Source of the DNA: a virus
Lineage: Duplodnaviria > Heunggongvirae > Uroviricota > Caudoviricetes
DNA length: 64,000 bases
Virus record (IMG/VR): IMGVR_UViG_3300024507_000282
Coordinates: 40,861-104,860 of that record
Reading direction: 5' to 3' (one strand)
Of this stretch, positions 4,653 to 48,156 are shown in pieces. Numbering within the stretch: the first letter of the stretch is position 1; each line of letters opens with the position of its first letter. The notes beneath the pieces were generated by a model, which was given only the letters and a program-made list of their open reading frames with translations, was not told the DNA's origin and searched no databases. The position numbers and the translations under genes were made by a program.

Positions 4653-4700
4653 TTTGTATTCTCCGTGTATGTGTGTAGTAACTCATGGTTTCTACTGATA

Positions 4701-4708
4701 TATTTATA
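4701..4708 (-). promoter_or_regulatory. T4-type late promoter box TATAAATA for the minus-strand block
   Basis: TATTTATA on + strand = TATAAATA on - strand, upstream of the 4652-3391 gene block. Confidence 0.4.
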
Positions 4709-4743
4709 CAATATAACGCAGTGCCACATACTTCCGTTGACTC

Positions 4744-4772
4744 TTGCAATTCCAAAATCTTTAATGTATAAT
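4744..4772 (+). promoter_or_regulatory. sigma70-like promoter (TTGCAA-N17-TATAAT)
   Basis: hexamers with 17-nt spacer 30 nt upstream of ATG 4802. Confidence 0.5.
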
Positions 4773-4801
4773 AGGTAAATACATAACAGGAAACAGGGCT
4801 T

Positions 4802-5077
4802 ATGAAAAAACGTACACGTTCGATTTTAGAAGAACTTAGTAGTTTAGGCAATAGTAGAAATACAGAACTTCTAATAGAAAATAGAGGTCAAAATATCATT
4901 GACAGCGCAGTTAATCTACTAAGTTTAGTGCGCCAGCAGTTCAATGAGGAAGAAAGTGCAGAACTAGAACGCCGTTTCCTTAATGCTATACGCACAGGTG
5001 ACCCACGCAAATTCCGCCGTGGAGTACAGAAAATTCAAGAACAGCGCAGAGCCGCTAAAAATAATCCTGAAAACTAA
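4802..5077 (+). CDS. hypothetical protein
   Basis: 91 aa ORF, charged/helical. Confidence 0.5.
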   Translation: MKKRTRSILEELSSLGNSRNTELLIENRGQNIIDSAVNLLSLVRQQFNEEESAELERRFLNAIRTGDPRKFRRGVQKIQEQRRAAKNNPEN

Positions 5078-16596: not shown

Positions 16597-18258
16597 TTAC
16601 GCTGAAAACGGTTGATCTAAACTACTAGGCAAGGCCGCTTCAGGCTTTGCCTTTATCAAATCCGCATACGTTTTAAAATATTTTGCTTCCTCTTCATCGG
16701 ATAATACAGCCGATGTTTTAATAGCAGTTTCAATACTCAACGGTGCTTCGCCGTATGTTTTATTTTCGTCAAATAACTTTTTAAGCAATTGCCACTGACG
16801 TGCTCTCTCATTAGTTTGAGCTTGAGTACGACTAGCACCTTTCCAAAAAACAGAATATTCTTGGAAGTTTGCGTTAAGTTTATCACGCTTATCTGAGTAA
16901 TACGTTTCTTCGGCTGTTCTAGTAGCAGGATCTGGTTTGTCTTTTACTACTTGTCTTCCTTTATCTCGTATAGCAACATATCCAGGGTACCAAGCATTAA
17001 GATTTTTTTCAAAATTATCTTTGGCAGTAATAGTCTCGAAGTAAGTCCTAATTTGTCTCCATTTTATTGCATAGGCTTCAACAAATGCCTCTGAAATTTT
17101 TTCATTAGGATCTTTGCCAAAGATTCCTGTTTTAGGTGTAGTTGTAGTAGTAGTTTCAGGTTCTTTAATTTTTGTTTCTTTAATCTCAGACTCTGGAGAC
17201 TTAGGCGGTTGTGCTGGATTGCTGGCAGCGGCCTGTGCAACAACTTTATTAATTTGTGCGGCACTAACTTGACTAGCATCAATCGTAGCGGCCCTGGCCG
17301 TGGCCATAATGCCACCTGCAGGTTGAGCCAATTGATTAGCAAATGCAAATGCCTTTAAATCTGCAACACCTGCACTAACAGCCGTATTGGCTTTAGTTTC
17401 GATTGCACCAAATGCCGCAGTAAGACCAGCACCCGCAGTAGTCATAGCAGTTTTTAAATTTGCTAGACTACTTAACTTACTGGCATTATCAGGATTAGCG
17501 GCAAATGTAGTATATGCCGGATTAGTAATAGGAGGACCACTGGGATTCTGTGGATCCGGGATAGTCTGCGGAGGTACACTATTAGCAAACGAAGTAATTG
17601 ATGCGCCTGCGCCGGTGGCAAGACTTGATACTTTATCTAAACCTGCCTTAGCAAAATTAGATGCGGTGTTTAATGCCGCAGGAAGTTTTGCACCAAAGTC
17701 TGCTCCTGCCTGTGCTACAGTTTTACTAACAGCCTCTGCCTGTGCTTTTAGAGCGGCAGGTCCATCTTGAAATATAGCCAATGCACCGCTGGCGGCTTTT
17801 AGTTGTTCTTCAGTTGGTGGTGCACCGGCTGCTAATGCTTTCTTAGTTGTTAGATCCATATTAGCCTGTGCTACTGCCATTAATTTAGGAAGTTGCGCCT
17901 GCGCCGCGGCCATCTTTGCGGCTACTGCGGCCTGTGCAGAAGCAAGTCCTTCGCTGACATCAGAAGGCAATGATCCAGCAACGTCGCCGATTTTATTAAT
18001 CGAAGCGGTAATACTTTTATTAATAGATCCATTTTTAATAGCATCTATAGTAGCATTTAAACTAGGACCATTAGAATCTGCCGGGGGAGTAAATGTGCCT
18101 GCATCTGCAGGAGGCTTAGGAAATGAACTGGCTATCTTCTTTGCCGCATCATTAACTATACTAGCCGCAGATTTGATTAATGTACCGGTTTGTTGACCAA
18201 ATCCATTAGTAGCAAAATCAAACCCATCTGGTGGGCTAGGTAAATTTAGTAAAGGCAT
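16597..18258 (-). CDS. Ala-rich low-complexity virion/tail-associated protein (function unknown)
   Basis: 553 aa, directly downstream of the PAAR gene on the same strand; long AxxA helical low-complexity stretches. Confidence 0.45.
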   Translation of the reverse strand: MPLLNLPSPPDGFDFATNGFGQQTGTLIKSAASIVNDAAKKIASSFPKPPADAGTFTPPADSNGPSLNATIDAIKNGSINKSITASINKIGDVAGSLPSDVSEGLASAQAAVAAKMAAAQAQLPKLMAVAQANMDLTTKKALAAGAPPTEEQLKAASGALAIFQDGPAALKAQAEAVSKTVAQAGADFGAKLPAALNTASNFAKAGLDKVSSLATGAGASITSFANSVPPQTIPDPQNPSGPPITNPAYTTFAANPDNASKLSSLANLKTAMTTAGAGLTAAFGAIETKANTAVSAGVADLKAFAFANQLAQPAGGIMATARAATIDASQVSAAQINKVVAQAAASNPAQPPKSPESEIKETKIKEPETTTTTTPKTGIFGKDPNEKISEAFVEAYAIKWRQIRTYFETITAKDNFEKNLNAWYPGYVAIRDKGRQVVKDKPDPATRTAEETYYSDKRDKLNANFQEYSVFWKGASRTQAQTNERARQWQLLKKLFDENKTYGEAPLSIETAIKTSAVLSDEEEAKYFKTYADLIKAKPEAALPSSLDQPFSA

Positions 18259-18260
18259 TG

Positions 18261-18584
18261 TTACGCTCCGTCATTAAACACATTAGAACTTCCGGTGATA
18301 GTTGTATATGTATCTCCGCCTTGTCCAAGGCCTGTATCTCCAATACGATGCACAGGCAAGTTTTCTGCAAACACAGTAGCAGATCCAGTAAGTGTTTGGC
18401 TAGTATGTCCGCAGGATTGTTCGCCAGGATCTCTAGTGGCTACTAGTTGTGCTAGGTTGTTTGTAAACACAGTACTGCATCCGGCAATGTGTGTGGTAGT
18501 ATAATCTACCGGTGGGCTAGGGGAGTGCAAAGGACATTTTCCTTCTCCCAAATCTGTTAATCTTGCTAGTGCTGGCATATTCAT
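18261..18584 (-). CDS. PAAR-repeat spike-tip protein (T4 gp5.4-like)
   Basis: 107 aa, Gly/Thr/His-rich with VHRIGD-type PAAR repeat and conserved Cys/His. Confidence 0.6.
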   Translation of the reverse strand: MNMPALARLTDLGEGKCPLHSPSPPVDYTTTHIAGCSTVFTNNLAQLVATRDPGEQSCGHTSQTLTGSATVFAENLPVHRIGDTGLGQGGDTYTTITGSSNVFNDGA

Positions 18585-18593
18585 ATTTATCGG

Positions 18594-18622
18594 TTGACAA
18601 CTACCAAAAATAATACTAAACT
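18594..18622 (+). promoter_or_regulatory. sigma70-like promoter (TTGACA-N17-TAAACT)
   Basis: consensus -35, 17-nt spacer, TAnnnT -10, 40 nt before iscA-like ATG. Confidence 0.4.
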
Positions 18623-18664
18623 ACGATAATTGTGCGATAAATATTACTACAACGGAGACACGAC

Positions 18665-18970
18665 ATGATTACAATAACAGAAACCGCTGAAAAAGAAATT
18701 CAAATGGTGCTGGATGAAAGCAAAGAAAAATACCTTAGAATTGCAATAGAAGGTGGAGGATGTTCGGGATTTAATTACGTGTTCGATTTTGCAAAAAACA
18801 AAGAAGAAGACGACTTTGAATTTGGTAGAATATTAATAGATTCAATGAGCATGAACTATTTGCAAGGAGCCAAAGTCGACTTTATCGATGACTTAATGGG
18901 CTCTAGTTTTAATATTGAAAATCCAAATGCACAAACAACTTGTGGATGTGGAAGTTCGTTTTCAGTTTAA
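18665..18970 (+). CDS. iscA: Fe-S cluster assembly protein IscA/HesB family
   Basis: C-terminal CGCGSSF signature, about 100 aa. Confidence 0.75.
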   Translation: MITITETAEKEIQMVLDESKEKYLRIAIEGGGCSGFNYVFDFAKNKEEDDFEFGRILIDSMSMNYLQGAKVDFIDDLMGSSFNIENPNAQTTCGCGSSFSV

Positions 18971-18979
18971 GGAGATTAA

Positions 18980-19369
18980 ATGGCTTATTCCGATAGAGTT
19001 ATAGATCACTACGAAAATCCTCGCAACGTAGGTAGTTTCCCTAAAGACGAGGAAGGCGTTGGCACAGGCATGGTGGGAGCACCTGCTTGCGGCGACGTGA
19101 TGAAGTTACAAATTAAAGTTAATAACGAGGGCATTATTGAGGATGCGAAATTCAAGACATACGGATGCGGAAGTGCTATTGCTAGTTCATCGTTGGTCAC
19201 CGAGTGGCTCAAAGGAAAAACGTTGGATCAAGCGGGAGAGATTAAGAACAGCGCGATTGCCGAAGAACTTGCACTTCCACCCGTTAAAATCCATTGTTCA
19301 ATTCTTGCGGAAGATGCTATCAAAGCCGCAGTAGCAGACTACAAGGCAAAAAATGATATCACTGTCTGA
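18980..19369 (+). CDS. iscU: Fe-S cluster scaffold IscU/NifU family
   Basis: [15 protein letters not shown] and [13 protein letters not shown] blocks; GGAG SD. Confidence 0.8.
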
Positions 19370-19673
19370 GAAAGCCGCAGAGCGAGTAAAGATTACACTA
19401 GACCGTAGGGGCAAAGGGCTAGGCATTCGATTAGGTGTTAAAACTACAGGCTGTAGTGGAATGGCTTATATGATTGAATTTGTTGACGAGCCCACAAAAG
19501 AAGATATGAGTTTTGTTAGTCACGGTGTACACGTATTTGTTGATCCAAAAAGTCTAGCATACCTGGACGGTGTACAAGTTGAATGGGTAAAGAAAGGTCT
19601 TAACGAAGGATTTGACTTTACCAATCCAAATGAACGTGACCGTTGTGGCTGTGGCGAGTCATTTCGAGTATAA
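19353..19673 (+). CDS. second IscA/HesB-family protein
   Basis: C-terminal CGCGESF signature. Confidence 0.7.
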
Positions 19674-19683
19674 ACCAAAACAC

Positions 19684-19712
19684 TTGACAGTTACCAAAAG
19701 TTGTTATATAAT
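19684..19712 (+). promoter_or_regulatory. perfect-consensus sigma70 promoter TTGACA-N17-TATAAT
   Basis: exact consensus hexamers with 17-nt spacer. Confidence 0.6.
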
Positions 19713-19749
19713 AATCCTATAGTAACAATATTTGGAGGTAACTTTGAGT

Positions 19750-20133
19750 ATGCACTTAGAAGGCCCGTGGCTTAGTACCACTGGCAAAAAGAAAGGCAAA
19801 CAAAAGTTTCGTTCTGCTGAACATGCCAAAAAGGCTAGAGAGTTAGACGAAAGTTGGAAGGCACTTCAAAAGAAGTGGGCCATCGAAGCCGAAGATAAAA
19901 AACGTAAGCGTGGACTAGCGGCACCGACGATGAATCCGGTAGTCAACAAGCCATTCGTTAGAGAAACACCAAAGATTGCTAGTTTACCATTTACTGGCGG
20001 TCCTTGTTTAAAAGCACCAGATAAAGTTTATACAGGCACAATGATCAAAGGCATCGGTACTATGCACAAGAGTAATGCAGTTCCAATTTTTAGTAATGAA
20101 GAAGCCGTAGAAATCTCCAAAATGAGAAGATAG
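19750..20133 (+). CDS. basic hypothetical protein
   Basis: ORF downstream of consensus promoter; ATG 19750 preferred over TTG 19732. Confidence 0.45.
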   Translation: MHLEGPWLSTTGKKKGKQKFRSAEHAKKARELDESWKALQKKWAIEAEDKKRKRGLAAPTMNPVVNKPFVRETPKIASLPFTGGPCLKAPDKVYTGTMIKGIGTMHKSNAVPIFSNEEAVEISKMRR

Positions 20134-24973: not shown

Positions 24974-26839
24974 ATGAGCAAAGTCATCGGTATCGACTTG
25001 GGTACTACCAATTCATGCGTAGCAGTCATCGAGTCAGGAAATTCCAAAGTTATTGAAAACAGCGAAGGTGCAAGAACTACACCTAGTATTGTTGCCTATT
25101 CTACAGACGAAGTACTTGTAGGTGCTAGTGCTAAACGTCAAGCAGTAACAAATCCCAAAAACACAATCTATGCGGCCAAGCGTCTTATTGGACGTAAGTT
25201 CAAAGAACAGGCTGTACAAAAAGATATTGACCTAATGCCTTACGAAATCATGGAATCCAAGAATGGAGATGCATGGGTTCGCGCACAGGGTAAAGAATTA
25301 GCACCTCCGCAGATTAGTGCTGAAGTTCTGCGTAAGATGAAAAAGACAGCAGAGGATTATTTAGGTGAAAAAGTTACTCAAGCAGTTATCACAGTTCCCG
25401 CATACTTTAATGACAGCCAAAGACAGGCAACTAAGGATGCTGGAAAAATCGCAGGCTTGGAAGTATTGCGTATTATTAACGAGCCTACTGCGGCAGCTCT
25501 TGCTTATGGTGTTGATAAAAACGACAAAGCAGATCGCAAAGTTGCTGTTTATGACCTTGGTGGTGGTACTTTCGATGTATCGATCATTGAAATTGCCAAC
25601 GTGGATGGCGAAAAACAAATCGAAGTACTAAGCACTAACGGCGACACATTCTTAGGTGGTGAAGACTTTGACCAACGTATTATGGACTACTTGGTCGACG
25701 AGTTTAAGAAAGAGTCAGGCATGAACCTTAAGAAAGACATGTTGGCCTTACAACGTCTAAAAGAAGCCGCTGAAAAAGCCAAGATTGAGTTATCTAGCAG
25801 TGCCAGCACTGATGTTAACTTACCTTACATCACAGCAGACGCAAGTGGTCCTAAGCACATGAATGTTAAGATTACTCGTGCTAAGTTAGAAGCATTGGTA
25901 GAAGAACTAATCCAACGTAGTATCGAACCATGTAAGGTTGCTATGAAGGATGCAGGTGTTACTCCATCAGAAATTGACGAAGTTATTCTTGTTGGTGGGC
26001 AAACACGTATGCCCAAGGTACAAGAAGCAGTTGAAAAACTATTCGGTAAGGCTCCACGCAAAGACGTTAACCCAGACGAAGCAGTAGCAGTTGGTGCGGC
26101 TATTCAAGGTTCAGTACTAGCAGGTGATCGTACAGACGTTCTATTGTTAGACGTAACACCATTGTCACTAGGCATTGAAACTATGGGAGGTGTGTTTACT
26201 AAACTTGTACAAAAGAACACAACTATACCTACTAAGGCTAGCCAAGTGTTTAGCACAGCAGAAGATAATCAACCAGCAGTTGATATCAAAGTAGCACAAG
26301 GCGAGCGTGAACTATTCCAATACAACAAACTCCTGGGTGAGTTTAAGTTAGACGGTATTGCTCCAGCACGTCGTGGCACTCCACAGATTGAAGTTACATT
26401 TGACATCGATGCTAACGGCATTATGAAAATTAGTGCTAAAGATAAAAACACCGGCAAAGAAAATCAAATCACAATTAAGAGTGACAGTGGTCTAAGCAAA
26501 GAGCAGATCGAACAAATGGTTCGTGATGCAGAAGTTAATGCCGAATCAGATAAGAAGGCACGTGAACTTATCGATGCTAGGAACACAGCCGAGGCGTTGA
26601 TCAACAATGTTGAAAACGACATGAAAGAAACAACACTTTCAGACACAGATAAAACAAAGATCGAAGATGCTGTTAAAGCACTTCAAACAGAATTGACAGG
26701 TTCTGACAAAGACGCTATCGTACAAAAGACTAGCGAACTAGCAGTGGCCAGTCAAGCGATTGCACAGGCCAAACAGGACAAGCCATTTGAACCTGTTCAG
26801 GAAGATGCAATCAATGCCGAGTTTAAGGAAACAAACTAA
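24974..26839 (+). CDS. dnaK: molecular chaperone DnaK (Hsp70)
   Basis: [29 protein letters not shown] signatures; 621 aa. Confidence 0.9.
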
Positions 26840-26848
26840 ACTCGTTAT

Positions 26849-26905
26849 GTAGGGTGCCCGGGTGGGGCCCTACTAAAATTCTTGCTTAATTAAAGGAGAT
26901 ATAAA
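26849..26905 (+). promoter_or_regulatory. stable hairpin plus the same conserved leader, preceding hsp20
   Basis: GTAGGG..CCCTAC hairpin without T-tract, then AAAATTCTTGCTTAATTAAAGGAGA. Confidence 0.45.
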
Positions 26906-27352
26906 ATGACACAATTAACACGTTTTGACACAGCCGCTCTAAACAGAGCATTAATCGGTTTCGACAATCTATTCGATACTTTCGAAACACGCTTTGCACA
27001 TCAGATTTCGAACAACTATCCTCCATATAATATTGAAAAGTCTGGAGAAAACCAGTATAATATAGTTGTTGCTGTAGCAGGATTCGGTAAAGATGAAGTT
27101 GCAGTAGAAGTGGAAGGTGATCAATTAACTATTCGCGGCGAGAAGGCAATCAATGCTAACGAAGGCGAATACCAAGTTGAGTACTTACACAGAGGTCTTG
27201 CTTTCCGTGATTTCGAACGTAGATTTACTCTAGCAGAACACATGGAAATCAAGTCAGCAGAAATTAAGGATGGTGTGCTTACAATTCAAATCGAGCGCAT
27301 TGTTCCTGAAGCACTTCTGCCACGTAAGATTGAAGTGAAAGAAGTTAAGTAA
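26906..27352 (+). CDS. small heat-shock protein (Hsp20/IbpA family)
   Basis: alpha-crystallin domain; IbpA-like N-terminus. Confidence 0.85.
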   Translation: MTQLTRFDTAALNRALIGFDNLFDTFETRFAHQISNNYPPYNIEKSGENQYNIVVAVAGFGKDEVAVEVEGDQLTIRGEKAINANEGEYQVEYLHRGLAFRDFERRFTLAEHMEIKSAEIKDGVLTIQIERIVPEALLPRKIEVKEVK

Positions 27353-27354
27353 AA

Positions 27355-27378
27355 AATCGGGGGCTCCGGCCCCCACTA
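27355..27378. terminator. GC-rich hairpin (terminator-like)
   Basis: GGGGGCtccgGCCCCC after hsp20 stop; T-tract only on the opposite strand. Confidence 0.35.
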
Positions 27379-27407
27379 ATAAATACCATTAAGAATGGAG
27401 GGCCAAT

Positions 27408-27716
27408 ATGCCAACTGTAGACACCGAAATTAAAATTGACGAAAAGATTAAAATCGATATCACTGAACCTAAGCGTTACAAGGTATTGTTTTTAAATGAT
27501 AACAAAACTCCAATCGACTTTGTTATTGAATTACTAATGACTGTGTTTAAGCACTCCAGAGAAAATGCTGAACAGATTACATTAACTGTACACAATGAAG
27601 GTTCAGCAGTAGTAGGTGTTTATACCTACGAGATCGCCGAGCAGAAAGGTGTTGAGGCAACACACCTTGCACGTCAAGCAGGCTTCCCATTACAAATTAA
27701 AGTGGATTCCGAATGA
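27408..27716 (+). CDS. clpS: ClpS adaptor protein
   Basis: 102 aa; KVLFLNDNKTPIDFVIELLMTVF core typical of ClpS. Confidence 0.75.
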   Translation: MPTVDTEIKIDEKIKIDITEPKRYKVLFLNDNKTPIDFVIELLMTVFKHSRENAEQITLTVHNEGSAVVGVYTYEIAEQKGVEATHLARQAGFPLQIKVDSE

Positions 27717-28267
27717 GTCTAAAAGAACTTACACACGAGCAACATCGCAGAGCAGAAACAAGGCCTTTTGTTAAAGTCTTATTTTCAGGAAATGTAAATC
27801 CTAAACTATACGCAACATATCTAAAAAATCAACATCCAATGTATGAGATTTTAGAAGTCTGTGCTATGCCACATGGATTACTTTCCGGTCTACCAGAGAT
27901 ACGCAGAGCACCTGCAATTTTATCTGACTTCATAGAACTATGGGGCTCAGACAATCCTGAAGAACCAAAAATGTGTCCGGTAGTGGATGAATATATCAAA
28001 TATATTCTCAGCATCAAAGATGATCCTAAAAAGTTGATGGCACACATTTATGTACGTCACATGGGAGATTTATCAGGCGGTCAAATGATTGCTAAAAGAG
28101 TTCCAGGCAGTGGCAAATACTATCAGTTTGGAGACGAACCTGAAAAGATCAAAGAAGCAATTCGTGCAAAACTAGATGATAGTCTAGCAGATGAAGCAAG
28201 AGTATGTTTTGATTTTGCGGCAAAATTCTTTGATCAAATGATGGATATAGTTCCACACTATGAGTAA
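27713..28267 (+). CDS. heme oxygenase
   Basis: HemeO-family N-terminal helix; ATGA coupling to clpS and to the bilin reductase gene. Confidence 0.7.
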   Translation: MSLKELTHEQHRRAETRPFVKVLFSGNVNPKLYATYLKNQHPMYEILEVCAMPHGLLSGLPEIRRAPAILSDFIELWGSDNPEEPKMCPVVDEYIKYILSIKDDPKKLMAHIYVRHMGDLSGGQMIAKRVPGSGKYYQFGDEPEKIKEAIRAKLDDSLADEARVCFDFAAKFFDQMMDIVPHYE

Positions 28268-28940
28268 AGTATGGGACACGCTGATTGAAGTTCAGCATCT
28301 TTTAGAAAGCAGTTTTAATGAAACAGGAACAGAAATCTTTGAACCGGGCATGGATCGCTTTAATCAGCCTGGTTGGGTTAATCGTGTTTGGACCAGTGGG
28401 TCTTATCGCCGTGCTCACGTTGATGTTGTGGATGCTAGAGAAACCAAAGGACTCTGGATGATGCATTGTTGCATCTTCCCACACTTACACAATCCAGCAC
28501 CAATTTACGGCTTTGACGTTGTAGCAGGCAAGAATAAGATTACTGGCTGTTTTCATGATTACAGCAAAGCAGGAGATTCTAATCATCCTATGATGGAATG
28601 GTTTGCTGATTATGTTAAACGACTCGAATGGCGCAGAGAACGCCAACTACCAGAATGGGCTACCAACATATTCAGCCCTAGCATGGTAGCCGCAGGTAAT
28701 GTGCAGAGCGAAGAAGAACTAGCGCAGATTATAGAAATGGCTAAAGATACACTGGCACATTACTTAGAAACTGTAGCAGAAACTAATAATACTACTGAAA
28801 ATACCACAGAAGCGCAGAACTACTACGCAATCAATCAAAAATGTAACCCACATACTCCACGTGTAATGGCTAGTTTAGGCTTAGATGAAGAGGATGTTAG
28901 GGTATTCATACAGGAATGTTTGTTCCCAGAAATTCGCTAA
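28260..28940 (+). CDS. ferredoxin-dependent bilin reductase (PcyA/PebS/PcyX family)
   Basis: family-typical blocks WTSGSYRRAHVDVVD, MMHCCIFPH, GFDVV; sits downstream of heme oxygenase. Confidence 0.6.
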   Translation: MSKVWDTLIEVQHLLESSFNETGTEIFEPGMDRFNQPGWVNRVWTSGSYRRAHVDVVDARETKGLWMMHCCIFPHLHNPAPIYGFDVVAGKNKITGCFHDYSKAGDSNHPMMEWFADYVKRLEWRRERQLPEWATNIFSPSMVAAGNVQSEEELAQIIEMAKDTLAHYLETVAETNNTTENTTEAQNYYAINQKCNPHTPRVMASLGLDEEDVRVFIQECLFPEIR

Positions 28941-31472: not shown

Positions 31473-31548
31473 GCCCCTTTAGCTCATCTGGTAGAGCAAC
31501 TGATTTGTAATCAGTAGGTGGTCTGTTCGAGTCGGACAAGGGGCACCA
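31473..31548 (+). tRNA. tRNA-Thr (anticodon TGT), CCA encoded
   Basis: manual cloverleaf: acceptor GCCCCTT/AAGGGGC, D GCTC/GAGC, AC stem ACTGA/TCAGT loop TTTGTAA, T-arm GTCTG-TTCGAGT-CGGAC. Confidence 0.8.
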
Positions 31549-31570: not shown

Positions 31571-32260
31571 ATGTTTGGTGCAAGTTACACAGGTACTGGA
31601 ATTTACCGTTCAGCCGCACAGATCAATGAAGCAATGGGTCGTGTCTATGGACACATGAGCCTAGCAGTTCTTGTGTCTATGATTGTTAGTTACTTTGTAG
31701 GTACTAGCCCAGAATTGTTACAATTCTTCTTTACAGGTGTAATGAAGTGGATTGTAATTTTTGCACCACTGGTTGCTATCTTTGGTGTTAGCATGGTACT
31801 ATCTAATAACCCTAGTAAACAAGTCGCCCAACTATGCTTACATGGTTTTGCGGCATTAATGGGTTTGAGCTTTGCTACAATTTTTGCTATCTTTACCATG
31901 GGCAGTATTGTTAGTGCGTTTATGGGTGCGGCGATCTTGTTTGGTACAATGAGCTTCTATGGATACTTTACAAAACGTAGTTTGGAAAGTCTTGGACAGT
32001 TTATGTTCATTGGATTGATTGCTATTGTTATTGCCAGTATTGTTAACATCTTTATTGGTAGTAGTGTAATGGCCATGGTTATCAGTGCATTAGCAATTAT
32101 TATCTTTCTAGGATTAACTGCTTACGATACACAGCAAATACGAGAAATGGTTTCAATCGACTCTGATCCTGCAACCGAAGTAACAGGTGCATTAACACTA
32201 TATATGGATTTTATTAATCTGTTCATTAATTTACTACAGTTGTTTGGTGATAGAAAATAA
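31571..32260 (+). CDS. Bax-inhibitor-1/YccA family membrane protein
   Basis: 7-TM profile and C-terminal LTLYMDFINLFINLLQLF block of BI-1/YccA family. Confidence 0.7.
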   Translation: MFGASYTGTGIYRSAAQINEAMGRVYGHMSLAVLVSMIVSYFVGTSPELLQFFFTGVMKWIVIFAPLVAIFGVSMVLSNNPSKQVAQLCLHGFAALMGLSFATIFAIFTMGSIVSAFMGAAILFGTMSFYGYFTKRSLESLGQFMFIGLIAIVIASIVNIFIGSSVMAMVISALAIIIFLGLTAYDTQQIREMVSIDSDPATEVTGALTLYMDFINLFINLLQLFGDRK

Positions 32261-32282
32261 TTAACTAGTATGTTAATTAATA

Positions 32283-32310
32283 AAAGGGCTCTTCGGAGCC
32301 CTTTTTTATT
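32283..32310 (+). terminator. intrinsic terminator
   Basis: GGGCTCttcgGAGCCC + T6. Confidence 0.75.
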
Positions 32311-32374
32311 ATGTGGTAATAGAATCTTTCTTGCTCTAGATTAAATAATAGTGAGATAGCCGGGAGCGAACCGA

Positions 32375-32914
32375 ATGAAAAAACTATTATCACTTATAGC
32401 ATTATTGCCTATGATTGTATCGGCAGCACCTTTAGGTGATTACACCTTTAAGAGTCCTGCCTTTAACGGCGTAGGTTACAGCAGTCATGTATTAACCATT
32501 GAGAATCAAGAGCGCACACGTCAGAAAGAACGTGCAGATAAACTACAGGCTGAAATTGACAAAGCAGCCGCAGATAAGAAAAACACCAACCTTGCTAAGT
32601 TTGTTAGTAACTTAGAATCACGTATCTATGCACAGATTAGTCAGAACGTAGCAACCGCTATGTTTGCCAATAACAACTGTACAGCAAGTAGCAACACAAA
32701 CTGTTCTGGCAACATTGACTTCCAGGGCAACTATATTAGTTGGGGCAGAGTTAGTAGTGCTAACGATGCTAACTGTTCAACAGCCTACGGATACTGCATT
32801 ATGTTAAAGATTGCAGATCCTACAGCCACTAACCCAAGTACAGCATCATGCACAGACACTGGAATGAGTTGTGTGTATGTTCCATTAAGTTCATTCCAAA
32901 TGCCGGGGAACTAA
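32375..32914 (+). CDS. secreted CsgF-like protein (curli accessory)
   Basis: signal peptide; mature N-terminus DYTFKSPAFNGVGYS resembles CsgF TMTFQFRNPNFGGNP; C-terminus Cys-rich. Confidence 0.45.
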   Translation: MKKLLSLIALLPMIVSAAPLGDYTFKSPAFNGVGYSSHVLTIENQERTRQKERADKLQAEIDKAAADKKNTNLAKFVSNLESRIYAQISQNVATAMFANNNCTASSNTNCSGNIDFQGNYISWGRVSSANDANCSTAYGYCIMLKIADPTATNPSTASCTDTGMSCVYVPLSSFQMPGN

Positions 32915-32917
32915 GAC

Positions 32918-34087
32918 ATGAAAAAGACAATACTATCCCTAGCAGTTTTAACTATGCTTTCAGGTTGTGCTGTTATGCAGACAACTGGAGTACTAGACAA
33001 GAGTCCTGAAGTTACAGGGCAAATGACTAATGTTAAGAAAGAATTTGATACAATACCTAGTCCAATCGCTGGAAGACCACTAAGCGTGGCCGTTTATAGT
33101 TTTACTGATAAAACAGGTCAACGTAGACCGCAGGCAAACATTGCCAGTTTATCAACAGCAGTGACACAGGGTGCAGAAACATTCTTAATACAGGCATTAC
33201 AAAATGTAGGACGCGGTCAATGGTTCGACGTTGTAGAACGTGTGGGCATTGATAACCTAACTAAAGAACGTTTAATTATTAGGCAAATGCGCGAAGCATA
33301 TGAAGGTAAAGATGCTAAACCATTGCTACCAATGCAATTCGCTGGAATTATTGTAGAAGGCGGAATAGTAGGCTACGATCAAAGCACTACCAGCGGTGGT
33401 GTAGGTCAACGTATATTTGGCATAGGCAAAAATACACAGTGGAGCACTGATACAGTAACAGTAAGTTTACGAGCAGTTAGCGTAAACACTGGTAAGGTAT
33501 TAGCCACAGTGACAGTACAAAAGACTATCTTAAGTTCAGCAGACAGCGTATCTGCATTAAAATTCTTTGACGCAGGCACTAAGGCATTTGAAGCAGAAGC
33601 AGGTTTAACTATCAATGAACCTGGCACTTACGCTACAAAGGCAACTATTGAAATGGCAGTCGTAGAGTTAATTAAGGAAGGACAACGTAAAGGTGTATGG
33701 GAGTTTAAACCAGAATCCGCACCAGCGGCCAAGGCACCTGTACCAGCACCAGCGGCCCAGCCGGTAATTAGCTCTGAGATTAAAGAAGAAGTTAAAGTAG
33801 AGGAGAAGAAAGATGTCGTGGTTCAATCACAAACCAAATCCGAAACCGAAACCAAGGCCGTACCCAGTACCGCCGCAAAAGAACTAGAGAAGTTACCTAC
33901 AGAAGCAATTCTAAAGGATGCTCAGTTTATATACAAGGAGCCAAACGAAAAGAGTCAAAGGACTTGGCAGTTTAAGCCAAATACACGAGTATTCATAACC
34001 GGGAGCGAAGGTGATTGGGTACAAGTGCAGGACGTAGAGAAGCGTAAAGGGTTTGTTAAAAAAGAAGTAGTTAACAAACAAAAATAA
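32918..34087 (+). CDS. csgG: CsgG-family secretion-channel lipoprotein (curli CsgG / holdfast HfaB family)
   Basis: lipobox LSGC; long colinear similarity to E. coli CsgG (AVYSFTDKTGQ, ERVGIDNLTKERLIIRQ, IIVEGGIVGYDQSTTSGGVGQRIFGIG, VSLRAVSVNTGKVLATV). Confidence 0.8.
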   Translation: MKKTILSLAVLTMLSGCAVMQTTGVLDKSPEVTGQMTNVKKEFDTIPSPIAGRPLSVAVYSFTDKTGQRRPQANIASLSTAVTQGAETFLIQALQNVGRGQWFDVVERVGIDNLTKERLIIRQMREAYEGKDAKPLLPMQFAGIIVEGGIVGYDQSTTSGGVGQRIFGIGKNTQWSTDTVTVSLRAVSVNTGKVLATVTVQKTILSSADSVSALKFFDAGTKAFEAEAGLTINEPGTYATKATIEMAVVELIKEGQRKGVWEFKPESAPAAKAPVPAPAAQPVISSEIKEEVKVEEKKDVVVQSQTKSETETKAVPSTAAKELEKLPTEAILKDAQFIYKEPNEKSQRTWQFKPNTRVFITGSEGDWVQVQDVEKRKGFVKKEVVNKQK

Positions 34088-34170
34088 GAAAGAGAGGTAG
34101 CACTTTAAATTTTTTAATGGTCTTAGACCAAGGAGCGAGTTAGGGAAGATAACCTAATTCTGTAAAAACG

Positions 34171-35145
34171 ATGCATAAGAGAATCACAGGCGCTGGTGGG
34201 TTGTCGAGAAAATTACTCACAATTCTGGTGTTGTCTGCAATGACAACATTGGGTTATGCGGCTGACAATAGCATTTACATTGATCAGTCCGGCGATAATA
34301 GTACTATTACTATGACTCAAGACGGAGCAGGAAACAAAGTAAAGGGTATATTATTAAATGGCACAGCAGGTGGAACAACTGATCCTGCTAAACTAACTGG
34401 TGCCGCACAGACTATCAACATTGAGCAAACAGGAGCAACTAACGTATTGGCGTTAGGTGTTAACTCAACACAAGGTGGTACTGTACAAGGTTATGCTAAT
34501 ATTGGTGTGAATTTAAATTACCAAGTAAGTGGTGGTGGAAACACAGGTTACATTAATATTAACAATAATGGTACAGGCACAGCCAGTGGTAACGTTGTTA
34601 GTTTTGTTCAAAGTGGCGGTAGTGCAACTACAACACTTAACATGACTGGTACAAGTAACCAATTAACTGTTGGAACTAGTGGTGGTGCTAACAACACATT
34701 TACAGGTACAATCAACGCTGATGAAACTGTAGCAACTGTTAGTCAAACAGGTGGCGGCGGCAACGCAACTACACTTAACATGACCGGAAACAAAGGTCAA
34801 GTTAGTCTAACAACTGTTGGTGCAACTAACACTACATCTGTAACACAGAGTGCATACGGTGTAACTGGTGCTCAAGCAATTATCAACATCACAGGTTCTG
34901 GTAATACTACAGACGTAACACAAACTGGTGCGTACGATCACTATGCTAGTATTACTGTAACAGGCGGTAGCAATGGCATTACACTTGCACAAACAGGTGG
35001 ATCTGCTACTGGACACAGCACAACGTTATCTGTAACAGGTAGTACTAATACTATTGGTATTACACAACAAGGATCAGTTAGCAATCTAACTAATCTTGCT
35101 ATATCAGGAAGTGGCAACACTTACACTATTTTACAGAAAAACTAA
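34171..35145 (+). CDS. secreted curlin-repeat protein (CsgA/CsgB/HfaA-like)
   Basis: signal peptide; repeated Q-x-G-x-x-N units (DQSGDNSTITMTQDGAGNKV, IEQTGATNV, VSQTGGGGNATT, VTQTGAYDH, ITQQGSVSN). Confidence 0.55.
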   Translation: MHKRITGAGGLSRKLLTILVLSAMTTLGYAADNSIYIDQSGDNSTITMTQDGAGNKVKGILLNGTAGGTTDPAKLTGAAQTINIEQTGATNVLALGVNSTQGGTVQGYANIGVNLNYQVSGGGNTGYININNNGTGTASGNVVSFVQSGGSATTTLNMTGTSNQLTVGTSGGANNTFTGTINADETVATVSQTGGGGNATTLNMTGNKGQVSLTTVGATNTTSVTQSAYGVTGAQAIINITGSGNTTDVTQTGAYDHYASITVTGGSNGITLAQTGGSATGHSTTLSVTGSTNTIGITQQGSVSNLTNLAISGSGNTYTILQKN

Positions 35146-35154
35146 GAGGGTTCC

Positions 35155-36261
35155 ATGAAATTATGGATGGTAGTATTATGCGTTCCGTTGCTGAGTACAT
35201 CGTTGGCCTACGCCGCGATAGGCAAAGTAACGGAACAAATCAATACACCCCCGACTATCCAGAGACAGAATTCGACACTAACGGCGTCGAAAGGGACTGG
35301 AGTGGAAATGAACGATGCGATCAAGACCCAGCAGGGCAAGGTGGGGATAACATTTGAGGACGATACTAAAGTCCAAGTCAATGAAAATTCTAAACTTGTA
35401 ATTGATGATTTCGTTTATGATCCAAAAAGTAAGGCGGGTAAACTAGGTGCTAAGATTGCTCTTGGCACAGTTCGTTATGCGTCTGGACAGATTGCTAAGA
35501 ATTCGCCTCAGAATGTGGCCCTTTCTACTCCTAGTGCTACTGTTGCTGTACGCGGTACTGACTTTACTGCCACTGTAGACGAGCTAGGCGAAAGTACAAT
35601 TATTCTTTTACCTAGTTGTCCTAATGATAGACCAACACGCTCAGTTAGAGATATTGAAACTAACTGTAAGACTGGCAGTATTGAAGTTAGCAATGATGTA
35701 GGTACTGTAATACTAAATCAACCCTTCCAAGTAACTAAAGTTCAAAGTAGAACACAACCTCCTACACCGCCTAAAGTATTAAATCTAAGTGAAATGGCCA
35801 TTGGCAATATGTTAATTGTCAGTCCTCCGCGCGAAGTCAAACAAGCACAACAAGAACAACAGAGAACATTTAATGCTTTAGACTTTGACTTTTTAAAAGA
35901 GAAAGGTTTGGAGAATTATTTAGATATGCAGGCCAATATGATTTATGAAGATAAGTTAGCCAAAAACTTTTTGTCTAATGATTTCCTTGCTAACTTATTC
36001 GACATTGTGGGAAACATACTGGATCAAAAGTTTTTAGATCCTGTAGATCCTGTGCTACCAGACTATAAAAAGTCCAGTGGCATTATAGCCTACAAAGATG
36101 ATATGAGTGTTGAACTCTGTCGCGACAACGGTGCTGACATACAATGTGTTAAAACACCACTCACACAAAACTCAACAATATTACAAACACAGGGCAATTT
36201 AGAATTTAAGAACAGAATAAATCAGGGAGGTAATACTATTATTACCTTGATACAAAAATGA
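35155..36261 (+). CDS. secreted FecR-domain-like protein
   Basis: signal peptide; VAVRGTDFTATV block typical of FecR/DUF4880 beta-domain. Confidence 0.4.
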   Translation: MKLWMVVLCVPLLSTSLAYAAIGKVTEQINTPPTIQRQNSTLTASKGTGVEMNDAIKTQQGKVGITFEDDTKVQVNENSKLVIDDFVYDPKSKAGKLGAKIALGTVRYASGQIAKNSPQNVALSTPSATVAVRGTDFTATVDELGESTIILLPSCPNDRPTRSVRDIETNCKTGSIEVSNDVGTVILNQPFQVTKVQSRTQPPTPPKVLNLSEMAIGNMLIVSPPREVKQAQQEQQRTFNALDFDFLKEKGLENYLDMQANMIYEDKLAKNFLSNDFLANLFDIVGNILDQKFLDPVDPVLPDYKKSSGIIAYKDDMSVELCRDNGADIQCVKTPLTQNSTILQTQGNLEFKNRINQGGNTIITLIQK

Positions 36262-38809: not shown

Positions 38810-39346
38810 ATGAGAGCAAAAGAATTTATAAAAGAAGCAGAAGCAAGTGACGCCGATTTAAAAGCAAGATATGGTGACTTCGATCCTGAAGATAAAATAA
38901 TGCTTCCAACTACAAAATTAAGCAGAGAACCTGCAGCCACGCTTTGGACAGCATATGATGTAGTTAGAAATATTCTAGGTAGAGATAGAGTAACTGACGA
39001 TGATGACGAATTAGGTCCTGGAATGTATTATGTCTACCAGAGTAGCGGAGATCCAATGTTTAGGGATACAGGCGACGGCGTTGGCAGTATCAACTTACCA
39101 AATCTAGACAGCACCGCGGCACGAGACGTTGCTGTTGCGGCCCACGAAGCATATCACGCTTATGTACACGCTAAAAGTAAAGGCGGCTTTGCACACGCTA
39201 ATGAAAAGATTATTAACAACTTAGCAGAAAAATGGTTGCGTAAACATTTATCAGGACAAGCCTTACATACAGCATTAGAACAAATTATAGGCAGTAGAAT
39301 TAGTTACGGCCGCAACCACTTACCAAAGCCAGGATTTAAAAAATGA
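38810..39346 (+). CDS. hypothetical protein with CTS-like N-terminus MRAKEFIKEAE
   Basis: fourth ATGAGAGCAAAAGAATT start; upstream in-frame extension to 38666 judged non-coding. Confidence 0.5.
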   Translation: MRAKEFIKEAEASDADLKARYGDFDPEDKIMLPTTKLSREPAATLWTAYDVVRNILGRDRVTDDDDELGPGMYYVYQSSGDPMFRDTGDGVGSINLPNLDSTAARDVAVAAHEAYHAYVHAKSKGGFAHANEKIINNLAEKWLRKHLSGQALHTALEQIIGSRISYGRNHLPKPGFKK

Positions 39347-39675
39347 AAATACAATTCAAAAAAATACTAGTAAGTCCATGGACTGCTTTACTAACTCTAG
39401 CACTAGTTGTTGGTGTCAGAGTTGCAGATCCTACATTTGTTGAAAGCGTAAGACTACGTTATTTTGACACATTAATTACAAGTAAAGAAGTTACAGTTAA
39501 CAACATAGTTACTGTAAATATCGACGAAGCCACGTTAGACAAATATGGTCAGTGGCCCTTACCAAGAGCAGAATATGCTAAACTTGTGAAGGAACTATAC
39601 CAAAGAAATGCAGGACTTGTTGTACTTAATGTTCTTTGCCAGAGACAGATCGTACTGGTGGAGATGGTGCGCTAG
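39343..39675 (+). CDS. CHASE2 sensor domain, N-terminal fragment of adenylate cyclase gene (frame 1)
   Basis: signal/TM then CHASE2-like blocks; domain continues in a different frame from about 39636. Confidence 0.5.
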   Translation: MKIQFKKILVSPWTALLTLALVVGVRVADPTFVESVRLRYFDTLITSKEVTVNNIVTVNIDEATLDKYGQWPLPRAEYAKLVKELYQRNAGLVVLNVLCQRQIVLVEMVR

Positions 39676-41393
39676 GACAAACTCTAAAAGAGTTCCCTGT
39701 AGTACTAGGAAGTGCGCCAGCACAGAAAACAAAGAATACACCACGTGTTCCAGGATCGGCTGTACTAGGTCCAGAACATCTAGATCAAATTATTCAATAC
39801 CCGGGACTAATCGCCAACGTTCCTCAACTAGAACAAAATGCCGCAGGTGTTGGCATTACAGGAACACTTCCAGAAGTAGATGGTGTTAATCGCCGCATGC
39901 CGTTAATTGTTACTGTAGACGGCAAATTATATCCAGCATTGAGTTTAGAGACACTTAGAGTCGCCGCAGGAGACTCTACCTTCCAAGTAAAACTTTTTGA
40001 AGGCGGCGTTGAGAAAATGCGTATTCCAAAGTTTGGTCCTATTGCTACAGATAGTTTAGGAAGAATTTGGATCGATTGGAGCCAAGAAGCTCATAGCGTT
40101 AGTGCTGTTAAACTTCCAAAAGATTTAGGTGGCGCCGTCGTTATTGTAGGTCCTACTGCCGCTGGTATTAGTAATCCGTTACCGACAAGCAAAGGTGCTG
40201 TATTTCCTCACGAAGTGCAGGCCGCAGTAATTGGTACAATGGTTAACGGCATTGTTATTCAACGTCCCGACTATGCCGACGGGGTTGAAATTTTAGCATT
40301 AGTATCACTTGGCATATTATTAATTTTCTTATCGAGGTGGACTTATGTTGGCATTGGTGCTACTGTGGTTATTGTTGGTGCCATCGTTCCTGGTACTATC
40401 TACGCTTTCAATAATTGGCTCGTCTTGGGAGACGCGACTGCGATCGCGTTTGGCCTTATTATCGTTGCTCTTCATTGTTATGGCGTTAAGTTTATAAGCG
40501 AGTTTTTACAGAAACAGGCAATTAAGAAACAGTTCGCTGGATACTGTAGTAAGGAAGTAGTAGAAATGCTACAAAAAGATCCAGACCTAATCAAGCGTGG
40601 TGTGCGTAAAGACGTATCCGTTATGTTCAGTGACTTGCGTGGCTTTACACCCATTGGAGAACACTACGGTGATGATGTTGCTGGATTAGGCAAGTATATG
40701 AACGGTTACATGGATGCTATTAGTCAGCCTATCATGGACAACAAGGGTATGGTCATAAAGTATGTAGGTGACGCAAGTATGCACATACACGGTGCTCCGA
40801 TTGAAGATCCTAATCATGCCCGTACTATTGTTGCTGTTGGTTTACAGATGTTAGATGCTGTTGATGAGTATACTAAACTAATGGAAGCACAAGGCTTACC
40901 ACCAGCCGCAATGGGTTGGGGTTGTAACTCAGGTATTGGCTTTATTGGTGAGATGGGATCAACTGACAGACATAGTTACGACATCTTAGGTGACATGGTT
41001 TCAACCGCCGCTCGTTTAGAAGCACGTTGTAAGGCCTATGGCGTGTTATGTATCATCGGTGCTGAAACTTACAACCGTACTAAAGATGACTTCTTCTATC
41101 TAATGCTAGATAACTTACAACCTAAAGGCAAAACTGTAGCAGACTTAATCTATACAGCATTAAGAACCAAAGGTGAAGATTACAGTAAAGATAAAGTACA
41201 GCACGAGTTGATGCATGCCTTGTATAAACAAAAGAAGTTCGACGAAGCAGCCGCTATGTGTAAAAAACTAAAAGGCAACTTTGGTGGACAAATGGACAAG
41301 TACTACAAAATCTGGATTGAACGTTGCGAGTTTATGAAAGAACAGAACCTTCCAGATAATTGGAATGGTGAATTCATAGCACATGAAAAATAA
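39636..41393 (+). CDS. CHASE2-TM-class III adenylate/guanylate cyclase, C-terminal part (frame 0)
   Basis: CHASE2 continuation, TM helices, cyclase blocks VSVMFSDLRGFT, KYVGDASMH, GDMVSTAARLEA. Confidence 0.65.
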   Translation: MPETDRTGGDGALGQTLKEFPVVLGSAPAQKTKNTPRVPGSAVLGPEHLDQIIQYPGLIANVPQLEQNAAGVGITGTLPEVDGVNRRMPLIVTVDGKLYPALSLETLRVAAGDSTFQVKLFEGGVEKMRIPKFGPIATDSLGRIWIDWSQEAHSVSAVKLPKDLGGAVVIVGPTAAGISNPLPTSKGAVFPHEVQAAVIGTMVNGIVIQRPDYADGVEILALVSLGILLIFLSRWTYVGIGATVVIVGAIVPGTIYAFNNWLVLGDATAIAFGLIIVALHCYGVKFISEFLQKQAIKKQFAGYCSKEVVEMLQKDPDLIKRGVRKDVSVMFSDLRGFTPIGEHYGDDVAGLGKYMNGYMDAISQPIMDNKGMVIKYVGDASMHIHGAPIEDPNHARTIVAVGLQMLDAVDEYTKLMEAQGLPPAAMGWGCNSGIGFIGEMGSTDRHSYDILGDMVSTAARLEARCKAYGVLCIIGAETYNRTKDDFFYLMLDNLQPKGKTVADLIYTALRTKGEDYSKDKVQHELMHALYKQKKFDEAAAMCKKLKGNFGGQMDKYYKIWIERCEFMKEQNLPDNWNGEFIAHEK

Positions 41394-44105: not shown

Positions 44106-44393
44106 ATGTCACAAGCACACGTTCAGAAGTTCGAAGCATCTATGTTTGAGTATTGCTCGGACCATGCCGAAAGGGCATACAAGTTATTTGAAGATGGAGA
44201 AGTAGATGTTGGATTGGAAAGATTAGGCCATTTAGCAGATATACTCCAAATGTTAAAAAGTTCTAAAAGTTCAAACGGAACTATTAACATTAATACATTT
44301 GCACAAGAAGTAAAAGCATTAGATGAAATAGATAAAGATGCCGTATACACACACTTCCAAGAGAACGGCTTTGGACAATATATACCGGAGTGA
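44106..44393 (+). CDS. hypothetical protein
   Basis: 95 aa ORF downstream of promoter. Confidence 0.5.
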   Translation: MSQAHVQKFEASMFEYCSDHAERAYKLFEDGEVDVGLERLGHLADILQMLKSSKSSNGTININTFAQEVKALDEIDKDAVYTHFQENGFGQYIPE

Positions 44394-44395
44394 AA

Positions 44396-44953
44396 ATGAA
44401 AAAAATTGATGAGTTCAATGCGGAAGATAGAATTGATCTTAGATTACTGGAAAATTCTACTTTTTATTTGAATGGAGAGATAGATGAAGATACAGTAGGC
44501 GAAGCCATCAAATGGATTCTCTATGAAAATTTACAAGGCGAAGGTAGAACTTTGACCTTGTATATTAACAGCACGGGCGGAGATTTGTATCAGGCTCTAG
44601 CGTTAATTGATGTAATGCGTAGCAGTCCACATATTGTAAGAACTATTGGAATTGGTGCTGTCATGAGTGCGGCATTTTTAATTTTTGCCTGCGGTGATAA
44701 AAAGCATCGTTATGCGGCTAGTAATACTAGTTTTATGTGTCACCAATTTACATCCGGAATGGATGCTAAGTATCACGACCTAAAAGCAGAAATGAAAGAA
44801 ACCGAATTGTTAAATGAAAAGATGATAACAATTCTAACCGAAACAACAGGCTTGGTTAAAAGTAGAGTTAAAGCAAAACTACTACCAGCCAGCGATGTTT
44901 ACCTAACTGCACAAGAAGTGGTTGACTTTGGGGTAGCGGATCATATAGTATAG
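44396..44953 (+). CDS. clpP: ClpP-family serine peptidase (S14)
   Basis: ClpP-like blocks INSTGGDLYQALALIDVM, GAVMSAAF (Ser), FMCHQ (His); GGAG SD. Confidence 0.65.
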   Translation: MKKIDEFNAEDRIDLRLLENSTFYLNGEIDEDTVGEAIKWILYENLQGEGRTLTLYINSTGGDLYQALALIDVMRSSPHIVRTIGIGAVMSAAFLIFACGDKKHRYAASNTSFMCHQFTSGMDAKYHDLKAEMKETELLNEKMITILTETTGLVKSRVKAKLLPASDVYLTAQEVVDFGVADHIV

Positions 44954-46086: not shown

Positions 46087-46118
46087 AAGTAATAAACATA
46101 ATAACAAGGAGAAACATT

Positions 46119-47756: not shown

Positions 47757-47761
47757 AGAAT

Positions 47762-48118: not shown

Positions 48119-48127
48119 CCAAACACA

Positions 48128-48156
48128 TTGACAGATGCCCTGTCCGAGCCTATAAT
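48128..48156 (+). promoter_or_regulatory. perfect-consensus sigma70 promoter TTGACA-N17-TATAAT
   Basis: exact hexamers 37 nt before ATG 48193. Confidence 0.6.

Follow-up and report, generated by a model that had tools for sequence, protein, structure and literature searches.

A stretch of 64,000 nucleotides from a virus of the class Caudoviricetes (positions 40,861 to 104,860 of the IMG/VR record IMGVR_UViG_3300024507_000282; hereafter "the window") contains three consecutive co-oriented open reading frames (ORFs) on the plus strand, at 18665-19673, which encode an A-type carrier (ATC) of iron-sulfur (Fe-S) clusters, the assembly scaffold IscU, and a second A-type carrier. This trio is genuine and probably functional, and we consider it likely that it is a phage operon supplying the scaffold and both classes of carriers, run together with the iron-sulfur cluster (ISC) machinery of the host. 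The three genes can be assigned to their families, the ligands and partner-binding motifs of their products are intact, their sequences are under purifying selection, their relatives are widely distributed among viruses, and their arrangement is specific to viruses.

The IscU scaffold

The middle gene, iscU (18980..19369, plus strand), encodes a protein of 129 aa that matches both the PF01592 family (E=2e-52, 177 bits versus a cutoff of 22) and the IscU equivalog model TIGR01999 from NCBIfam (225.6 bits, cutoff 192.4). Its alignment with E. coli IscU (2l4x, 3lvl; E=5e-68) runs without gaps over residues 1-126 and retains all the ligands (C37, D39, C63, H105 and C106 in the E. coli numbering), the HscA-binding LPPVK motif (residues 99-103 of the phage protein), as well as Y3, Y11, V40, K59, G64 and K103, which we take to be the residues that contact IscS in the IscS-IscU structure 3LVL. 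Across 84 viral and 77 cellular homologs, the only deviation at the ligand and partner-contact positions is a single K59N substitution in a viral protein. The overall identity of the phage protein to bacterial IscU amounts to 78-84% (78% for the protein from Acinetobacter).

Two A-type carriers of different classes

Both flanking genes belong to the PF01521 family (E=2.5e-17 for ORF1 and 6.9e-20 for ORF3) and their products have intact cysteine motifs. The initial annotation of this stretch, which had recognized three consecutive Fe-S assembly genes encoding a scaffold and two A-type carriers, is thus confirmed by the profile searches, and its reservation that the conserved cysteine ligands might prove missing is dispelled by the alignments, in which all ligands are intact in all three proteins. 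However, its suggestion that the A-type carrier has been duplicated does not hold, since the two proteins are only 31% identical and fall into separate curated subfamilies, ErpA-like (ATC-I) and IscA (ATC-II), respectively. A duplication can therefore be ruled out, and this case corrects the habit of interpreting two PF01521 genes in this way.

The assignment of ORF3 (iscA; 19353..19673, plus strand; 106 aa) to the IscA-type carriers follows from its score of 160.8 bits against the IscA model TIGR02011 (cutoff 150.6), compared to 71.7 bits against the ErpA model, although it falls short of the stricter NF007049 cutoff (158 versus 181). It is about 67% identical to E. coli IscA (1r94, 1s98; E=5e-43), with C34, C98 and C100 aligned to C35, C99 and C101 of that protein, and the three cysteines are invariant in 66 viral IscA sequences. 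As is typical of ATC-II genes, it adjoins the scaffold gene, which it follows directly and overlaps.

On the other hand, ORF1 (18665..18970, plus strand; 101 aa) scores 117.5 bits against the ErpA model NF010147 (cutoff 117), compared to 76.5 and 78 bits against the models for IscA and SufA, respectively. Its best matches among the solved structures are HI1723 from H. influenzae and AQ_1857 from Aquifex. With ErpA (yadR in E. coli, HI1723 in H. influenzae) it shares the fold family and the Cys-Xn-Cys-X-Cys motif (C33, C93 and C95), but it differs from the cellular members (~114 aa, ~45% identity) in the absence of the N-terminal extension and in small loop deletions. In a search of 5.8 billion proteins, the best 120 matches to ORF1 are 64-99% identical to it, nearly all of them are 101 aa long, C33, C93 and C95 are invariant among them, and several are encoded on contigs of 300-381 kb. 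The search of phage records, in which bacterial ErpA proteins are only ~45% identical to ORF1, revealed no cellular homolog above that level, whereas more than 100 metagenomic homologs exhibit at least 64% identity. The ratio of nonsynonymous to synonymous substitution rates (dN/dS) between ORF1 and its relatives is 0.05-0.19. Judging from these comparisons, ORF1 appears to represent a short ErpA-like lineage that lives mainly in giant phages.

According to Vinella (2009, PMC2682760), carriers of the ATC-II class (IscA, SufA) receive clusters from the scaffold and those of the ATC-I class (ErpA) pass them to the apo-targets, so that the aerobic route in E. coli leads from IscU or SufBCD via IscA/SufA and ErpA to the apo-proteins. 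According to the same study, proteobacterial ATC-I genes are typically unlinked to Fe-S biogenesis genes, and the combination of a scaffold, ATC-II and ATC-I in one unit is rare in bacteria. The immediate proximity of the phage ErpA-type gene to iscU-iscA thus departs from the layout common in cells, in which the lack of Fe-S biogenesis neighbors is a typical rather than a strict feature. In the relatives of the phage, the ORF1-type gene likewise adjoins iscU, iscA or iscS.

Operon layout and expression signals

The three genes are tightly packed, with ORF1 located 10 nt upstream of iscU and the start of iscA placed 17 nt ahead of the iscU stop codon, i.e. within the scaffold gene. As the initial annotation had stated, the trio is preceded by a putative promoter of its own, TTGACA-N17-TAAACT (18594..18622, plus strand), which agrees with the sigma70 consensus at 10 of 12 positions. 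Candidate Shine-Dalgarno sequences, as read from the DNA, are GGAG at 18654..18657 (plus strand), 7 nt 5' of the ORF1 start codon, and AGGAG at 18970..18974 (plus strand), which precedes iscU and overlaps the stop codon of ORF1. The 3' boundary of the trio is presumably marked by a perfect consensus promoter revealed by the promoter scan, TTGACA-N17-TATAAT (19684..19712, plus strand), which would open the next transcription unit; the interval from 19673 to 19732 yielded no terminator-like site.

A local scan over 2.8 kb gave no more promoter-like sites than chance would produce (three versus 6.2 expected). However, over the whole window the TTGACA-N17-TAnnnT motif occurs 15 times versus 1.38 expected, i.e. 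it is 11-fold over-represented, with 14 of the 15 sites on the plus strand (among them 9596, 12269, 18594, 19684, 21314, 48128, 49312, 52722 and 58236) and several located immediately 5' of ORF starts. This enrichment argues that the site at 18594 is a member of a real, over-represented class, and host-type sigma70 promoters appear to drive the auxiliary-gene region of the window. An IscR type-2-like motif (CCNNANNNNNNNTANGG) has no match in the promoter region (18585-18664), and its count across the window is at the chance level (109 versus 114 expected), but this result is uninformative, as the motif of the host may differ.

Between the block of ribonucleotide reductase (RNR) and glutaredoxin genes and the trio, the minus strand encodes a 553-aa low-complexity protein and a PAAR protein (16597-18584). 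In the syntenic relative L168, the PAAR gene (4683-4991, plus strand) is co-oriented with the ErpA-like gene and abuts it; the two PAAR proteins are about 36% identical over 73 aligned residues. A local rearrangement may explain why the trio in the window has its own promoter.

Distribution and evolution of the viral genes

The phage IscU has relatives on at least 598 IMG/VR contigs. We classified the best 80 viral loci (L002-L081) by tblastn with reference proteins and compared them with 80 bacterial loci (L084-L163). Among the viral loci, 51 contain IscU and IscA, 12 contain IscU alone, about 14 include an ErpA-like gene in assorted orders, and none contains canonical IscS, IscR, HscB or Fdx, the sole related matches being two weak hits of the SufS type and a single cross-hit resembling DnaK. 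By comparison, the complete order iscR-iscS-iscU-iscA-hscB-hscA-fdx was found in 50 of the 80 bacterial loci, most of the others being cut by the locus ends. The difference extends to the junction between the two core genes: iscU and iscA overlap in 51 of 55 viral loci (mostly by 17 or 29 nt) and in none of the 77 bacterial ones; in nearly all cellular loci they are 4-95 nt apart. This contrast argues for joint transfer of the two genes among phages rather than for capture from the host anew each time, and the overlap could serve as a simple marker of viral copies. Neighbor-joining trees place the IscU from the window in a clade with 65 viral sequences out of 66, and its IscA in an all-viral clade of 17 beside Burkholderiales sequences, but these trees are crude and their sequences had been chosen beforehand for likeness to the window, so that they should be regarded as suggestive only.

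The dN/dS values for the trio versus its phage relatives are 0.04-0.19, with dS saturated or not computable in most pairs; the sole clean estimate of dS, between IscA and its counterpart in L168, is 0.95. The G+C content at third codon positions (GC3) of the three genes is 0.27, 0.43 and 0.30, i.e. inside the interval spanned by the sampled window ORFs (0.24-0.41) or very close to it. Taken together, the low dN/dS and the phage-like GC3 indicate that the trio genes are old, maintained residents of the phage genome, not recent passengers.

These data also bear on a trivial explanation, according to which the trio either belongs to a host, the contig having been misassembled or misclassified, or was captured recently and is non-functional. 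Such suspicion is justified by the high identity of the phage IscU to its bacterial counterparts and by the fact that several supposed phage records with isc genes are bacterial contigs; in particular, records labeled as phages, such as Acinetobacter phage MD-2021a, turned out to be bacterial chromosome contigs with a full isc operon and were used only as a source of reference proteins. However, exactly the same three proteins recur, always in the same phage context, in independent samples, where they are encoded on about 40 contigs with lengths of up to 330,125 bp. The trio adjoins genes for the PAAR protein and a cell-wall hydrolase, and the window also contains rIIA, rIIB, class Ia RNR, a tail-spike-like protein and an endolysin. 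Given, in addition, the GC3 values, the dN/dS ratios far below 1, the iscU-iscA overlap that is never seen in the cellular loci, and the distance of ORF1 from any cellular homolog in the search of phage records, we regard contamination or misassembly as effectively refuted.

Missing partners and the proposed mode of action

Our searches for partners of the trio covered the 64-kb window and about 10 kb on each side of it, whereas the whole genome measures at least 330 kb. The tblastn searches with Acinetobacter proteins revealed none of IscR, IscS, HscB, HscA and Fdx in the window (the sole cross-hit was the phage DnaK), and no ISC partners were found in Pfam scans of about 45 window ORFs or among the genes of the 10-kb flanks. 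The complete iscRSUA-hscBA-fdx set is therefore not present in the region searched. A query with the IscS of a related phage (L172, described below) gave no match on the 330,125-bp contig, but the resulting list was swamped by betaproteobacterial IscS sequences. Thus, the "private" Fe-S supply postulated in the initial annotation is an overstatement: the cognate cysteine desulfurase it recommended looking for is found neither in the 64 kb nor in the 10 kb on either side, and the same holds for other sulfur donors, chaperones and ferredoxin.

As IscS, HscBA, ferredoxin and IscR are lacking from the region searched, the module most likely operates by joining the ISC machinery of the host. We propose that the host sigma70 RNA polymerase would read the compact three-gene operon, with iscA translationally coupled to iscU. 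The phage IscU would dock on the host IscS and be served by the host HscBA and ferredoxin, and clusters would then pass from IscU to the coupled IscA, further to the ErpA-type carrier and finally to the apo-proteins. By reference to the E. coli route, with IscU, ATC-II and ATC-I the phage would encode everything downstream of sulfur mobilization. The capacity for scaffolding and carriage of clusters would thereby be raised outside the control of the host isc operon, and the Fe and Fe-S processes of both the host and the phage could be kept going, including respiration, isoprenoid synthesis and the supply of ferredoxin for the heme oxygenase and bilin reductase. We infer by analogy the use of host IscS and HscBA and the direction of the cluster flow; expression timing and any fitness benefit are likewise presumed.

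Several considerations weigh against this scenario. The phage may carry its own desulfurase or chaperones elsewhere in the genome, as some of its relatives do. ORF1 clears the ErpA cutoff by a marginal 0.5 bit, the N-terminal extension found in cellular ErpA is missing from it, and its role as the terminal carrier is suggested by analogy. Finally, the analysis of the window revealed no enzyme that would be a client for Fe-S clusters. The clients listed in the initial annotation were wrong in detail, since class Ia RNR and the fatty-acid desaturase, both encoded in the window (the former next to a glutaredoxin gene), contain di-iron centers rather than Fe-S clusters; several such enzymes take electrons from [2Fe-2S] ferredoxins. 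The bilin reductase can be retained on that list only as an indirect client, via ferredoxin. It is encoded together with DnaK, Hsp20, ClpS and heme oxygenase in a block at 24974-28940 (plus strand), downstream of which lies the gene for ClpP (44390-44953, plus strand). The phage DnaK was considered as a substitute for HscA, but this idea is unsupported, since its identity to bacterial DnaK reaches 68%, compared to only 40% for HscA; no gene for a J-domain protein, DnaJ, GrpE or HscB was found in the window.

The same lack of a desulfurase in the visible region, combined with the full preservation of the IscS-contact residues, would also fit a different role of the phage IscU, namely that of a competitor for the host IscS. 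The partners of IscS share one binding surface, and the phage protein could divert the sulfur flux into Fe-S clusters and away from other clients of IscS, such as tRNA thiolation via TusA/ThiI and the synthesis of molybdopterin and thiamine. However, the inheritance of two carriers together with IscU implies that productive delivery of the clusters matters, and competition would be unnecessary for those relatives that bring their own IscS. We consider this possibility improbable.

Relatives that vary the module

Several relatives of the phage exhibit variants of the trio. In the syntenic contigs L168 and L169, whose products are 78% (ErpA-like) and 92% (IscA) identical to those from the window, a gene for an Fe/Mn superoxide dismutase (SOD) is inserted between the ErpA-like gene and iscU (L168, 5001-6558). 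In L170 (4254-6091), iscA on the opposite strand is followed by iscU, the ErpA-like gene and the gene for adenylylsulfate (APS) kinase, and the whole group is located among sulfotransferase genes. L172 (3071-5306) contains iscA, iscS, iscU and the ErpA-like gene, and its IscS possesses the pyridoxal phosphate (PLP)-binding lysine and the catalytic loop SSGSACTS, as expected for a bona fide enzyme. In L009 (3308-6694 of a 245-kb contig) and L073, sufC, a sufD-like and a sufS-like gene precede iscU-iscA, in what is, judging from the gene content, a hybrid SUF/ISC cluster; the L009 IscA is 91% identical to that from the window. The SufS homolog of these two contigs retains the PLP lysine, but both have GHLNA instead of GHHCA, i.e. 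asparagine occupies the position of the persulfide-forming cysteine. A few further IMG/VR contigs encode IscS with IscU and IscA, without IscR, HscBA and Fdx.

In the light of these variants, it is tempting to regard the trio as the minimal form of a modular Fe-S island that has been inherited within a clade of giant phages, probably infecting Betaproteobacteria, instead of being repeatedly captured from the hosts. The core of such an island may be composed of the overlap-joined iscU-iscA pair and the phage-specific 101-aa ErpA-type carrier. We put this forward only tentatively and find it less probable than not. If it were true, some giant phages would come near to an autonomous Fe-S assembly line free of the IscR control, in which iron released by the phage heme oxygenase might feed the assembly, and the ferredoxin-dependent phage enzymes might be served.

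The presence of SOD in L168 and L169 calls for consideration of yet another role of the module, namely protection against oxidative and iron stress. Infection and heme breakdown would raise the level of free iron and reactive oxygen species, and the carriers with IscU could buffer iron and rebuild oxidized clusters, thereby providing damage control rather than biosynthetic capacity. The window is rich in genes that would fit this role: in addition to glutaredoxin, DnaK, Hsp20, ClpS, ClpP and heme oxygenase, it encodes a peroxiredoxin (AhpC-TSA), a small GDSL-like ORF and a CMD-domain protein (PF02627, a family that contains AhpD) at 56690-58178 (plus strand), of which the first and the last look like a peroxide-defense pair carried by the phage. 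Moreover, trafficking centered on ErpA is critical under iron limitation (Fisher 2024). However, the full set of IscU ligands and the LPPVK motif point to de novo assembly, the protective role overlaps with the supply of scaffold and carriers that we favor, and sequence alone does not separate repair from supply. As a separate explanation, stress repair seems to us unlikely, if less so than the competition for IscS.

Relation to known systems

With respect to the bacterial ISC operon (E. coli, Acinetobacter, Burkholderiales), the phage genes are clear homologs with the same order and orientation of iscU and iscA. The phage differs in the absence of IscR, IscS, HscB, HscA and Fdx from the region searched and in the addition of the ErpA-type gene, its own sigma70-type promoter and the 17-nt overlap between iscU and iscA. 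This combination of IscU and carriers in a phage context, without the rest of the host operon, is what characterizes viral Fe-S auxiliary metabolic genes, and the 80 viral loci classified above share this pattern.

Reports of such genes in viruses date back to about 2015-2017, and the general idea is already published. Nishimura et al. (2017; mSphere, PMC5332604) found genes for Fe-S assembly in 16 viral genomes from the marine environment, from uncultured T4-like and other tailed phages, 14 of which encode an A-type carrier and six IscU; the viral IscU grouped with gammaproteobacterial homologs, and the genes co-occurred with those for glutaredoxin (Grx), ClpP and Fe-S enzymes. That report also cites earlier virome work, in which sufA and iscU had been found. 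The window resembles those genomes in having Grx and ClpP, but they are marine and 10-211 kb in size, whereas the phage studied here has a genome of at least 330 kb and betaproteobacterial, possibly freshwater signals; the portion of the report available to us neither distinguishes ErpA-type from IscA-type carriers nor describes a three-gene operon. Subsequent publications have mentioned further settings with viral iscA-like or Fe-S cluster genes, and transcripts of the HesB/IscA/SufA family are abundant in viral-fraction metatranscriptomes from Lake Baikal. Among cultured or complete records, phage C48C1 (Kyanoviridae, OQ984149) encodes a NifU-like protein, annotated as acting in Fe-S assembly, that is an IscU homolog 76% identical to ours, but it stands alone, with no A-type carrier detected in that record. 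Taken together, the report of 2017, the later ones and C48C1 show that phage IscU and A-type carriers are already known in kind.

The additions made here are modest: ATC-I and ATC-II are explicitly paired with IscU in a single operon, an ErpA-like lineage of 101 aa is found on contigs of giant-phage size, and the iscU-iscA overlap emerges as a signature of viral copies. To this may be added the setting, i.e. a giant phage with a putative betaproteobacterial, possibly freshwater host, and the relatives that add IscS, SufCD with a Cys-less SufS, or SOD. Fe-S clusters underlie respiration, isoprenoid synthesis and ferredoxin-dependent reactions, and a virus with its own scaffold and both classes of carriers could sustain or redirect these processes during the shutdown of host expression. 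The three proteins are close enough to their E. coli counterparts for direct complementation tests, and the natural variants, with and without IscS, the Cys-less SufS or SOD, would allow the limiting Fe-S steps of viral replication to be dissected.

The carrier genome and its possible host

Judging from the length and gene content of the contigs, the carrier of the trio is an uncultured giant phage with a genome of at least 330 kb. Megablast of the region 18400-19900 against 50,697 phage records gave no match, and the searches with the DNA of the RNR genes and with the rIIA protein revealed only remote relatives, Xanthomonas phages X1, XbC2 and XacN1; the best match to rIIA among the deposited phages comes from XacN1 (385 kb) and is 29.5% identical.

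The host can be approached through the RNA genes and the Fe-S proteins. The window encodes a two-piece (permuted) transfer-messenger RNA (tmRNA; 47671-48134, plus strand), which scores 138 bits against the Rfam model tmRNA_permuted and 129 bits against the model for Betaproteobacteria tmRNA, and for which ARAGORN predicts the tag peptide ANASTFEYFTVEGFTADNGLVAA. A GOLLD RNA (RF02032; 62240-62703, plus strand) scores 207 bits versus the gathering score of 150; this RNA family was first described from lake metagenomes and Lactobacillales. The closest cellular relatives of the phage IscA (63-69% identity) come mostly from Burkholderiales, chiefly Comamonadaceae (Acidovorax, Variovorax, Limnohabitans, Rhodoferax), and some from Methylophilaceae, although E. 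coli IscA is about equally similar. The IscS of L172 is closest to the betaproteobacterial enzymes (76-82% identity). The betaproteobacterial-type tmRNA, the GOLLD RNA and the Burkholderiales homologs of IscA thus suggest a betaproteobacterial, possibly freshwater host, and lend no support to the iron-limited marine host assumed initially.

Other genes in the window

The window contains 27 tRNA genes, about 24 of which form an array at 59022-64000 (plus strand); within it, tRNA-Lys(CTT) (62303-62376) is embedded in the GOLLD RNA. A tRNA-Thr and a tRNA with the anticodon CTA are located outside the array (31473-31548 and 53825-53898), and the tRNA with the anticodon CTA could be an amber suppressor. 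The region 31571-36261 (plus strand) encodes a membrane protein of the Bax-inhibitor-1 family, followed by CsgF-like and CsgG-like components of curli secretion, as well as a protein in which a curlin repeat is weakly recognizable and another with a FecR domain. Two overlapping ORFs on the plus strand share a CHASE2 sensor domain between them, with its N-terminal part at 39343-39675 and its C-terminal part at 39636-41393, the latter ORF adding an adenylate/guanylate cyclase domain; this split could have arisen by a frameshift or through an error in sequencing, or the shift could be a programmed one. Finally, a protein with a histone H1-like Hc1 domain (PF07432, E=1.6e-20) is encoded at 46008-46319 (plus strand).

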